A stretch of DNA of 64,000 nucleotides from Escherichia coli (GTDB taxonomy: Bacteria; Pseudomonadota; Gammaproteobacteria; Enterobacterales; Enterobacteriaceae), in NCBI RefSeq assembly GCF_001677475.2, contig NZ_CP015229.1. The stretch is one strand, 5' to 3'. A program made the position numbers and the translations under genes. Under the pieces are notes generated by a model. The model was not told the origin of the DNA and did not search any database. It saw nothing but the letters and a program-made list of their open reading frames with translations. Of this stretch, positions 362 to 43,122 are shown piece by piece. Position 1 is the first letter of the stretch. Each line of letters opens with the position of its first letter.

Positions 362-1177
362 TTATTGGTTAAATGGCGCTTCGTGTTTAAGAACTTTATC
401 GATCACATCCAGTACGCCTTCACGGTTATTGGAGCCTGCCCGGTATTTTGCCGCTGCGACGACCGCGCTGCCGGCATTTTCCATTGCAAAACTAAAGCCT
501 GCCTGACGCAGCATCTCAATATCGTTACCGCCATCGCCAAAGACCACCACTTCGCTGTCGTCTATTCCCCATAATTTCTGCAGTTGGCGAAGGCCATTGG
601 CTTTATGTACGCCGGGGATAATCAGATCGATGCTGCCGTTGCCGGTGTGGACCGGCACCATAATATCGCCGATGGCCTCATGTAATGCTTTTTGTACTTG
701 TGGAATCAGTTCATCGGAAAGATTCAGACCAAACTTAAAGAAGATATCTTCTAAGTTGTCAAAGTTATCGACGTATTCCAGACGGTGATAATACATTTCC
801 GCCACCGTTTTCATGGCATCGTCATATTTTTTGAGGGTATAGGCGCTATTTTTTCCGCAGGCAATAATTTCCACTTCCGGGCGCGTCAGCAAATGTTCCA
901 CGACAGTAGCAAACGCATCCTTCGACAGCTCGCCATTAAAAACATCTTTGCCTTCGCTCACTACCCAGCCGCCGTTTTCAGCCACAAAGGCTATTTCATT
1001 AGCAATTTCCGGAAAGAAAGAGATCAACTGATAATATTGATTCCCGCTGGCGACCACAAAGCGAATGCCTTGTGCTTTCATTTGCTGATACTGAGCCATA
1101 AACCGCTCACGGTTATAGGTTTTTTGATCGCTTAAGAAAGTACCATCCATGTCTACCGCAATTAATTTAATGCTCAT
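362..1177 (-). CDS. ybjI: HAD-superfamily phosphatase
   Basis: ORF 362..1180; ATG at 1175-1177 gives 271 aa; N-terminus [14 protein letters not shown] carries the HAD DxDGT motif; start overlaps the ybjJ stop by 1 bp. Confidence 0.85.
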   Translation of the reverse strand: MSIKLIAVDMDGTFLSDQKTYNRERFMAQYQQMKAQGIRFVVASGNQYYQLISFFPEIANEIAFVAENGGWVVSEGKDVFNGELSKDAFATVVEHLLTRPEVEIIACGKNSAYTLKKYDDAMKTVAEMYYHRLEYVDNFDNLEDIFFKFGLNLSDELIPQVQKALHEAIGDIMVPVHTGNGSIDLIIPGVHKANGLRQLQKLWGIDDSEVVVFGDGGNDIEMLRQAGFSFAMENAGSAVVAAAKYRAGSNNREGVLDVIDKVLKHEAPFNQ

Positions 1178-2385
1178 CAATTATTCTCCATCGCCGTCTG
1201 CGTTTTGGTATCGGGTTTGGCGACGGCTTTCGCGACAATAGCCGCGAGAATAACCAGCGCCAGTACAACCAGCATTGCACTACGTAGTCCATAATGTTCG
1301 CCGAGATAGCCCAGCAGCGGCGGCCCGACGAGGAAAGCCAGATAACCGGTCGTTGCTACTACGCTGACGCGGGTCGGTGCATCGGGGCCGGTATCGCTGG
1401 CGGCAGAAATGGTCAGCGGGAAGCCCAGCGAAGCACCCAGTCCCCAAAGTACAACAGACACCCCTGCGACCCAGGCGCTATCGACAAAAATAATCAGCCC
1501 AATACCCAACGCTCCCATTAGTGCACTGGCCCGAACCACGGCAACGCGACTGTAACGGTCGATGAACCAACCGCCGGTAAAGCGTCCAACAGTCATCCCC
1601 AGGGTAAAACCGGCATAAATCAGCGAGCCGGAAGTAGGGCTAAAACCGTGACCGTCAACCATTAATAAGGGTAACCAGTCGTTGGCAGAACCTTCGGCAA
1701 AGGCCATCGCCAGCACTACAACACCAATCAGCAGCAACTGGATATCGCGATAAAAAGGTACGCCTTTTTCACCATGCTGGGTGCCATCGGCAGCATTTTT
1801 GCCCGTACCGTCAGGGATTGCCTGAATGGCGATATAAATAGGCGCGATGCCTACCAGCGCCGCCAATAAAATGTGCACCGTTGCCGGAACGCCAAAGGCC
1901 GTCAGTGCCATCCCGATACCAGCGCCTGCCAGCGTGCCCAGGCTATAAAAACCGTGCATCATCGGCAAAACCGTCTTATTCATTTCTCGCTCAACGGCAG
2001 CACCTTCAACGTTTATCGCCACTTCCGCAGAACCAAAACTTGCCCCAAAGACGCCGAGACCAACGGCAAAGAGCAGGGGCGATGTCAGCCAGAGTGCCAG
2101 ACTTAATATCATCATCCCGATCAATGCGCAGGACATCGTGACCAGGATGACATTACGCGTCCCAAAGCGTTTCACTAACCACGCCGAGCAGAGAATACCG
2201 CTCATTGAACCGATCGACAGACCAAAGAGGACTCCGCCCATTTCAGCGATCGAAACAGAAAGAATATCGCGGATAGCAGGCGTACGGGTTGCCCAGGACG
2301 CCATTAACAGGCCCGGCAAAAAGAAGAACATAAACAGCGCCCAGGTTCGGCGTTTCAATGCATTACGTGAAGAATTTAAGGTCAT
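1177..2385 (-). CDS. ybjJ: MFS-type inner membrane transporter
   Basis: 402-aa ORF, highly hydrophobic multi-helix protein; recalled as E. coli YbjJ. Confidence 0.85.
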
Positions 2386-2428
2386 AGATCACGTCAAAAT
2401 AAGAAGAGGGAAGACAACATTAGCAAGG

Positions 2429-2448
2429 TTGTGTACATTTGTACACAA
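2429..2448. promoter_or_regulatory. Perfect inverted repeat TTGTGTACAtTTGTACACAA in the ybjJ-rcdA divergent intergenic; candidate TetR-family (RcdA) operator
   Basis: Palindrome read directly; lies 20-40 bp upstream of the rcdA start. Confidence 0.5.
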
Positions 2449-2468: not shown

Positions 2469-3005
2469 ATGCGTCGCGCTAACGATCCGCAACGGCGAGA
2501 AAAAATTATCCAGGCCACGCTGGAGGCGGTGAAACTTTATGGAATACATGCTGTTACGCACCGCAAAATTGCTACCCTTGCCGGGGTACCGTTGGGATCG
2601 ATGACCTACTATTTTTCAGGAATTGATGAGTTGTTGCTGGAGGCGTTCAGCAGTTTTACTGAGATCATGTCCCGGCAATATCAGGCATTTTTTAGCGATG
2701 TTAGTGATGCACAGGGCGCATGCCAGGCTATCACCGATATGATATACAGCTCACAGGTTGCAACGCCGGATAACATGGAGCTGATGTACCAGCTCTACGC
2801 GCTGGCTAGCCGAAAACCGCTATTAAAAACGGTAATGCAAAACTGGATGCAGCGCAGTCAGCAAACGCTCGAACAATGGTTTGAACCCGGAACTGCCCGC
2901 GCGCTTGATGCGTTTATTGAGGGGATGACGCTGCATTTTGTCACCGACCGTAAGCCGCTATCGCGCGAGGAGATTTTGAGGATAGTTGAGAGGGTTGCAG
3001 GGTAG
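2469..3005 (+). CDS. rcdA: TetR-family transcriptional regulator RcdA (YbjK)
   Basis: ORF 2439..3005 trimmed to ATG at 2469 ([21 protein letters not shown]...), 178 aa; N-terminal HTH of TetR type. Confidence 0.85.
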
Positions 3006-3024
3006 TAGATAAATTTTAGGCAAC

Positions 3025-3103
3025 AAAAAACCCACCAACCTTGAACCGAAATGGCGGGGTTGATGGGCTCCACAAAATGGGGACATCAAAGAAAAGCAGT
3101 GGC
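3025..3103 (-). ncRNA. rybB: sigmaE-dependent small RNA RybB
   Basis: Reverse complement reads GCCACTGCTTTTCTTTGATGTCCCCATTTTGTGGAGCCCATCAACCCCGCCATTTCGGTTCAAGGTTGGTGGGTTTTTT, ending in a GC hairpin plus U-run; lies in the ybjK-ybjL intergenic where rybB is known to sit. Confidence 0.85.
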
Positions 3104-39612: not shown

Positions 39613-39644
39613 GCCTTTAGGATGTACACAATGAGACAGAAGAG

Positions 39645-43034: not shown

Positions 43035-43122
43035 GTTCACTGCCGTACAGGCAGCTTAGAAATTCACAGGTAACATACTCCACCCGCCCACCATGTTCAC
43101 TGCCGTACAGACAGATAAAATG
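43035..43122 (+). CRISPR. Orphan type I-F (Ypest-type) CRISPR mini-array: 2 repeats, 1 spacer, no cas genes
   Basis: Repeat 1 GTTCACTGCCGTACAGGCAGCTTAGAAA (43035-43062), 32-bp spacer TTCACAGGTAACATACTCCACCCGCCCACCAT, degenerate repeat 2 GTTCACTGCCGTACAGACAGATAAAATG (43095-43122); AT-rich leader-like region upstream. Confidence 0.8.

Follow-up and report, generated by a model that had tools for sequence, protein, structure and literature searches.

An inverted repeat between ybjJ and rcdA in Escherichia coli matches the published RcdA operator, overlaps the rcdA start site and has a core conserved across Enterobacteriaceae

In the tet region there are two operators, each 15 bp long and with an odd central base, for TetR, which represses its own gene and responds to a high-affinity inducer, and TetR-family operators that overlap a -10 element, as in the TetR/tetO case, normally act in repression. 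The rcdA and ybjJ genes have been discussed alongside eilR and eilA in work on ionic liquids. The system closest to the one considered here is that of RcdA in K-12, for which a palindromic RcdA box, TTGTGTACAttTGTACACAA, was described within the ybjJ-rcdA spacer, together with a unit consensus of TTGTnnACA (TTGTnTACA) (Shimada et al. 2012, MicrobiologyOpen, PMC3535384). In the same study, this spacer was a top genomic SELEX target (15 or 22 clones, depending on the passage) and the strongest gel-shift probe for RcdA, and low amounts of the protein gave a single clear region of DNase I protection within it. RcdA also coated whole probes cooperatively in vitro and aggregated, forming more than 10 complexes on the spacer probe, and its boxes at other targets occurred in tandem. 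In an rcdA mutant, ybjJI mRNA appeared on Northern blots and ybjJ-lacZ activity rose, indicating that RcdA represses ybjJI, and the activity of rcdA-lacZ was lower, a drop interpreted in the study as positive autoregulation. The study calls the site palindromic, leaves its asymmetric TT unmentioned and gives no promoter or start-site map (PMC3535384).

RegulonDB v12 lists RcdA as a homodimer whose Tris- and TMAO-bound forms are inactive conformations (PMC10767902). Its Kd for TMAO is 7 mM (PMC12998191), and acetate is reported to raise its DNA binding. The protein has also been reported to be an activator at several other promoters (PMC3535384; PMC6790063). Under ionic-liquid selection, loss-of-function mutations in rcdA were recurrent and the mutants were tolerant, and in this context RcdA was described as a predicted regulator of the ybjJ pump (PMC5691611, PMC6174563).

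We analyzed a 64,000-nucleotide stretch of DNA, referred to below as the window, from a non-K-12 E. coli genome (contig NZ_CP015229.1). Positions 2429-2448 read TTGTGTACATTTGTACACAA, a 9+2+9 inverted repeat whose arms (2429-2437 and 2440-2448) are 100% complementary and enclose TT; a repeat finder run on 2300-2560 reported this inverted repeat and no other. As a dyad-symmetric site with perfect 9-nt arms and a 2-nt spacer, it falls within the 15-30 bp range, and a motif scan recovers TTGTnnACA units at 2429 (+), 2439 (+) and 2440 (-). The original prediction had described a perfect 20-bp palindrome centered about 30 bp upstream of the rcdA start, between two divergent genes. The sequence is as described, as are the divergent arrangement (ybjJ on the minus strand with its start codon at 2385, rcdA on the plus strand with its ATG at 2469, and an 83-bp spacer between them) and the position (the center, 2438.5, is 30.5 bp ahead of the rcdA ATG). 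The symmetry was overstated: because the central TT is not self-complementary, the 20-mer is not a perfect palindrome, and its reverse complement, TTGTGTACAAATGTACACAA, differs from TTGTGTACATTTGTACACAA at positions 10 and 11. Coordinates of the element and of the features around it are given in Table 1.

Table 1. Features of the ybjJ-rcdA region, in window coordinates
Feature	Position	Strand	Basis or remark
RcdA operator (palindromic RcdA box)	2429-2448	no strand	Inverted repeat; published box; identity with K-12
Left half-site, TTGTGTACA	2429-2437	+	Fits published unit TTGTnnACA / TTGTnTACA (motif scan)
Right half-site, TTGTGTACA	2440-2448	-	Half-site centers 11 bp apart
Invariant core, GTGTACATTTGTACA	2431-2445	no strand	14-mer at 2432-2445 invariant (81/81 sequences); G2431 in 80/81
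rcdA transcription start site	2447 (MG1655 887401)	+	Cappable-seq; A after C, position 19 of the 20-mer
Putative rcdA -10 hexamer, TACATT	2434-2439	+	-13 to -8; inside the operator, invariant
Putative rcdA -35 hexamer, AAGACA	2411-2416	+	-36 to -31; 17-nt spacer to TACATT
Predicted ybjJI extended -10, TGcTAATGT	2417-2425	-	Near-invariant block; fixed distance to ybjJ
Predicted ybjJI -35, TGTACA	2440-2445	-	17 nt upstream of TAATGT; equals right arm of operator; invariant
rcdA (ybjK), 178-aa TetR-family regulator	2469-3005	+	Pfam TetR_N and TetR_C_31; PDB RcdA chains
ybjJ, 402-aa MFS transporter (MFS_1), first gene of ybjJI operon	1177-2385	-	Open reading frame and domain; repression in PMC3535384
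ybjI, second gene of ybjJI operon	362-1177	-	Operon named in PMC3535384

The element is the already known, published RcdA operator; it is functional and not new. The window sequence at 2429-2448 matches the published box at 20/20 positions, so that what had been put forward as a candidate RcdA binding site, to be compared with that box, is a box that has been footprinted with RcdA (PMC3535384). The whole 83-bp spacer is the same in K-12 MG1655, where the 20-mer occupies 887383-887402, and three SNPs relative to K-12 lie in the flanking coding sequence. The source paper is inconsistent, across its text, the legend to its Fig. 1 and its Table 1, about one assignment, in that 22 SELEX clones and a 72-bp overlap bearing the palindrome seem from one passage of the text to belong to the tfaX-appY spacer and are given to the ybjJ-rcdA spacer in the legend to Fig. 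1, and it misprints the box once as TTGTGACAtttGTaCACAA (PMC3535384). The tfaX-appY spacer was considered as the home of the palindrome and rejected: K-12 positions 579000-586000 hold no match to the 20-mer at fewer than 6 mismatches, and there is no TTGTnnACA unit in the 1-kb MG1655 stretch at about 582800-583800 that contains this spacer. In K-12, the 20-mer is therefore a feature of the ybjJ-rcdA spacer and is absent from the tfaX-appY region.

The flanking genes are those expected from K-12. The rcdA product carries PF00440 TetR_N (31.7 bits, cut-off 24) and PF17940 TetR_C_31 (37.9 bits), and it matches over its full length the RcdA chains 5x5i, 7acl and 7aco in the PDB; the structures also include 7acm, and no RcdA-DNA complex was found among the PDB matches. 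Just beyond rcdA, 17 nt past its stop codon and convergent with it, lies the gene for the RybB sRNA (3022-3100, minus strand; Rfam RF00110, 104 bits), a locus annotated rybB in K-12.

Conservation was surveyed with one genome per species, which yielded 80 loci with RcdA proteins 67-98% identical to the query, among them loci from Escherichia, Citrobacter, Salmonella arizonae/diarizonae, Klebsiella, Raoultella, Enterobacter, Kluyvera, Kosakonia, Leclercia, Lelliottia and Phytobacter. The 14-mer TGTACATTTGTACA upstream of rcdA is identical in 80/80 of these species-level Enterobacteriaceae genomes, and the survey of orthologous intergenic regions that the original prediction had suggested thus finds the core unchanged in every species. 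The outer positions of the arms vary among the 81 aligned sequences (T at 2429 in 56; C at 2446 in 35 and T in 46; A at 2448 in 67), and across the spacer positions 2386-2412 the commonest base accounts for only about 40-60%. A second near-invariant block in the same 81 sequences spans 2413-2427 and reads GACAACAnTAGCAAG. RcdA's helix-turn-helix region is also conserved, with 19 of 28 residues invariant at positions 28-55.

Within E. coli, the ybjJ-rcdA region matches 5,422 of 5,426 complete genomes, in which ybjJ and rcdA are the annotated neighbors. A 64-mer containing the operator matches 5,295 E. coli genomes, 2,257 of them with one to three mismatches. In two divergent members of this group that were read (uk_P46212 and EC08, loci L086 and L087), AC stands in place of GT at 2428-2429, so that the outermost pair of the repeat is lost and the core stays intact. 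Of 5,428 ybjJ-rcdA matches in E. coli, five fall on plasmid-typed records, and up to three copies occur in some genomes.

Repeats of this kind were also counted across the window. Four inverted repeats have perfect 9-nt arms and a spacer of 0-4 nt, where dinucleotide shuffles give 1.6 +/- 1.4; if the spacer must be exactly 2 nt, two are left, where the shuffles give 0.25 +/- 0.47. The three other repeats with 9-nt arms (14684-14703, 57860-57881 and 62022-62043) are GC-rich, terminator-like stems, an example being AAAGCCGCAGGTGCGGCTTT, which lies across the end of rlmC (3' end at about 14682). These window-wide counts alone are compatible with chance. For the 83-bp spacer alone, the calculated expectation is about 0.002 (83 positions x 5 spacers x 4^-9). 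The repeat is taken to be more than a chance occurrence because its core is conserved and experiments on it have been published.

A second exact copy of TTGTGTACA occurs at 39623-39631 on the minus strand, where the 3' ends of macB and cspD face each other, and adjoins a terminator-like stem, GCCAGCCGATCGGGCTGGC. It was rejected as an RcdA site, being an isolated half-site of which about 0.5 chance matches are expected by our own calculation.

Several other features of the window were recorded. A low-GC island of about 2.5 kb (19500-22000; 29-36% GC versus about 50-58% in its flanks) lies between ybjP and ybjQ and looks horizontally acquired. It contains an intact 600-aa open reading frame with pentapeptide-repeat matches (19950-21752, plus strand), whose counterpart in E. 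coli strain 7/2 carries the annotation of a truncated pseudogene. Between clpA and tRNA-Ser, GTTCACTGCCGTACAGGCAG occurs twice on the plus strand (43035-43062 and 43095-43114, 60 nt apart), and its first copy matches Rfam CRISPR-DR4; we take these repeats to be the vestigial type I-F CRISPR locus situated between clpA and infA in E. coli. Rfam matches were also obtained to the sRNA STnc130 (57852-57986, minus strand, 140 bits), at the 3' end of which lies the inverted repeat at 57860-57881, and to naRNA4, a family of REP-derived nucleoid-associated RNAs (15620-15700, plus strand), between artJ and artM.

The position of the operator is tied to ybjJ. The two genes are divergent in 79/79 loci in which the flank is present, and, counted from the start codon of ybjJ, the core is reached after 45-49 nt in 78 of 79 species and after 55 nt in the remaining one. 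From the core to the rcdA start, the distance is 22-26 nt in most species and 56-123 nt in about 11, which include Salmonella, the Klebsiella oxytoca group, Raoultella and K. indica and in which the ybjJ side is unchanged (loci L022, L023, L025, L032, L041, L050, L055, L062, L064, L068 and L073). With a variable distance to rcdA and a fixed distance to ybjJ, the element therefore keeps register with the ybjJ promoter and not with the coding start of rcdA. The sequences inserted between the operator and rcdA are 30-100 nt long and mutually unrelated, and in Salmonella arizonae/diarizonae the RcdA reading frame gains an N-terminal extension, MKENT.

To place the rcdA promoter, we used the start sites that Ettwiller et al. 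2016 listed from Cappable-seq (PMC4782308 supplement), in the portion covering plus-strand sites up to about 1.1 Mb of U00096.2. Coordinates were converted to U00096.3 with an offset of 777, calibrated on 12 start sites in the K-12 locus: under this offset, +1 is a purine and -1 a pyrimidine in 11 of 12 cases, compared with 7 or fewer under other offsets. Within that portion of the list, the interval 884045-888769 of U00096.2 contains one plus-strand site, 886624 (PMC4782308), which corresponds to the start site in Table 1. Because transcription starts at 2447, the repeat extends from -18 to +2 in the rcdA promoter, and the operator overlaps the rcdA core promoter with the start site inside its right arm; overlap with the ybjJ promoter is predicted.

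The promoter elements themselves are putative. A scan of the spacer for the sigma-70 consensus at a threshold of 9/12 called no site, and our assignments, which draw on the mapped start of rcdA and on conservation, score 8/12 for rcdA and 7/12 plus a TG motif for ybjJ. The GACA of the putative rcdA -35 hexamer (2413-2416) is invariant or nearly so, and the conserved putative ybjJI extended -10 reads TGcTAnTGT from 2425 to 2417. Together, the putative -35 of rcdA and the ybjJ extended -10 account for the second conserved block, 2413-2427. On this map, as read from sequence, the operator would cover the -35 and the spacer of the predicted ybjJI promoter. What is new here is the conservation of the operator, its position lock to ybjJ and the placement of the rcdA start site inside it.

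The start site also bears on whether the repeat acts as a hairpin in RNA or DNA (a terminator, a 5' stem-loop or a cruciform). As RNA, the plus strand would fold (-10.8 kcal/mol, z-score -4.3), but an rcdA transcript beginning at 2447 keeps only 2 nt of the repeat, and the predicted ybjJ transcript would begin at about 2410, leaving the repeat upstream of its start. There is, moreover, no T-run after the repeat on either strand and no terminator-like site called in the spacer, and the C-to-T change often seen at 2446 is never accompanied by a compensating one at 2431. The RNA hairpin or terminator reading was rejected on the 2447 start, the missing T-run and the uncompensated change at 2446, and we give a hairpin function of any kind next to no credence.

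With promoter hexamers embedded in the operator, part of its extreme conservation may stem from them rather than from contacts with RcdA. In an alternative reading, the repeat is kept chiefly for the promoter elements in it (the rcdA -10 and the ybjJ -35) or because another regulator, CRP- or TyrR-like, binds there, with RcdA in a secondary role. Both TACATT and TGTACA do fall inside the invariant core, the asymmetric central TT belongs to the -10, and TGTGT-N6-GTACA agrees by eye with the CRP consensus TGTGA-N6-TCACA at 7/10 positions. Promoter hexamers, however, are rarely 100% identical over 15 consecutive bases across genera, the conserved bases track the RcdA half-site and not the CRP or TyrR consensus, and RcdA footprints exactly here, in the spacer that is its best SELEX target (PMC3535384). 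A CRP or TyrR box was rejected as a weak resemblance judged by eye, and we consider it very improbable that RcdA is secondary at this site.

The reading that we favor, and hold with high confidence, is that the element is a high-affinity operator of the TetR-family homodimer encoded alongside it, probably bound by one dimer that would occlude the ybjJI promoter. Binding, the footprint and the repression of ybjJI are experimental results of others, and the clearest published repression target of RcdA is the divergent ybjJI operon, not rcdA. From the arrangement of the site we infer that one RcdA dimer would put a helix-turn-helix domain on each of the two TTGTGTACA half-sites, which share one face of the DNA because their centers are 11 bp apart, about one helical turn. 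Bound in this way, RcdA would block RNA polymerase at the ybjJI promoter, probably by steric occlusion of the predicted -35 and spacer, and the transporter operon would be repressed. It would also occupy the putative rcdA -10 and the start site, so that the same site would set the transcription of rcdA. Release of RcdA by a physiological ligand would derepress ybjJI, as does loss of RcdA, in keeping with the ionic-liquid tolerance published for rcdA mutants.

One dimer per 20-mer may be too simple, given the cooperative spreading of RcdA. Two dimers or a higher oligomer might instead nucleate at the site and seed a cooperative coating of the spacer; a dimer of its own would then bind each of the self-palindromic TGTACA hexamers (2432-2437 and 2440-2445) or each of the 10-bp direct units TTGTGTACAt and TTGTACACAa, much as IR1 is bound by two QacR dimers. 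The invariant part of the site is exactly TGTACA-TT-TGTACA, with outer arms that vary, and the sequence can also be read as direct TTGTnnACA units at 2429 and 2439; the more than 10 gel-shift complexes, the cooperative spreading, the aggregation and the tandem boxes at other targets (PMC3535384) point the same way. The hexamer centers, however, are only 8 bp apart and leave no room side by side for two TetR-type dimers, the footprint at low protein is single (PMC3535384), and RegulonDB lists a homodimer (PMC10767902). Within 250 bp on either side of the operator there is also no further box with one mismatch or fewer on which ordered oligomers could assemble. We therefore judge nucleation by two dimers improbable and retain a single dimer on the 20-mer.

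The sign of rcdA autoregulation is where the geometry of the operator and the literature part. An operator lying over the -10 and the start site predicts, by its geometry, repression of rcdA, that is, negative autoregulation, and a predicted repression of both promoters conflicts with the published positive autoregulation, in which rcdA-lacZ activity was lower in the rcdA mutant. The original prediction had seen here the typical geometry of a TetR-family autoregulatory operator; this stands, with the site at -18 to +2 of rcdA, subject to the qualification that the autoregulation has been reported as positive and not as the classic TetR negative loop. Among the rows listed from the supplement of a CRISPRi promoter-response screen (PPTP-seq, PMC10505187), there is no edge from rcdA to ybjJI or from rcdA to rcdA; knock-down in that screen was perhaps incomplete, and this absence is weak evidence.

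One way out of the conflict is that the site is a tetO-like dual repressor site, at which RcdA represses both ybjJI and rcdA and positive autoregulation is indirect. It is plausible, for example, that on a reporter fragment a derepressed ybjJ promoter outcompetes the overlapping rcdA promoter for RNA polymerase. The operator does lie across the mapped rcdA start with TACATT inside it, the predicted ybjJ promoter (2445 to 2417) shares its DNA with the rcdA promoter (2411 to 2447), the reporters in pRS551 carried entire "promoter regions", and repression is the usual outcome when a TetR-family operator sits over a -10. Against this, the sole direct measurement is the lower rcdA-lacZ activity in the absence of RcdA (PMC3535384), and RcdA is a reported activator at several other promoters (PMC3535384; PMC6790063). 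We keep dual repression as a tentative alternative, less probable than not, and regard as rather doubtful the specific proposal that RcdA represses both overlapping promoters and that "positive autoregulation" reflects promoter competition after derepression of ybjJ. If that proposal were true, RcdA at its own locus would be a classic TetR-type pump repressor, and its ancestral, conserved job across Enterobacteriaceae would be the control of ybjJI. The published sign of rcdA autoregulation misfits the geometry and deserves a direct test.

From raw sequence, the original prediction came upon an operator that experiments on a characterized regulator had already defined. For a control region that is already known, the added value of the present analysis is small and consists in a base-resolution picture. 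In practical terms, TGTACA-TT-TGTACA is a clean, minimal and deeply conserved operator for an RcdA/ybjJ sensor module, for use in, for example, the engineering of ionic-liquid tolerance.

Compared with the systems described to date, the element is the same as the published K-12 RcdA box, with an identical 20-mer, an identical 83-bp spacer and the same flanking genes. Like TetR/tetO of Tn10 (tetR-tetA), it combines a TetR-family dimer, a short palindromic operator that overlaps both promoters, here by prediction in the case of ybjJ, and a divergent MFS transporter gene under repression. Unlike the tet region, the RcdA locus has one 9+2+9 site, a reported positive autoregulation, many genomic targets, cooperative spreading and, as reported ligands, only millimolar ones such as TMAO.

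In its layout, the locus also resembles EilR/eilO of Enterobacter lignolyticus ("Jungle Express", PMC6127294), in which a TetR-family dimer recognizes inverted half-sites 2 bp apart, the operator is embedded in both promoters beside a divergent MFS pump gene, and there is a link to ionic-liquid tolerance. The operators differ: eilO (AAAGTTGGACAC and GTGTCCAACTTT) has 11-bp arms and occurs twice per spacer (PMC6127294), and the RcdA site is unrelated to the eilO consensus AAAGTTGGACACGTGTCCAACTTT and does not belong to the eilO family. EilR (PDB 5vl9) matches RcdA weakly and in the N-terminal helix-turn-helix region only (E = 1.5e-4); with an unrelated operator and so weak a match, EilR/eilO was rejected as an orthologous system and is an analogue only. 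QacR/IR1 of Staphylococcus aureus likewise pairs a TetR-family repressor with a drug-pump gene and has its operator over the start site, but IR1 is 28 bp long and takes two dimers (cited in PMC6127294), whereas the RcdA site, at 20 bp and with half-site centers 11 bp apart, fits one.
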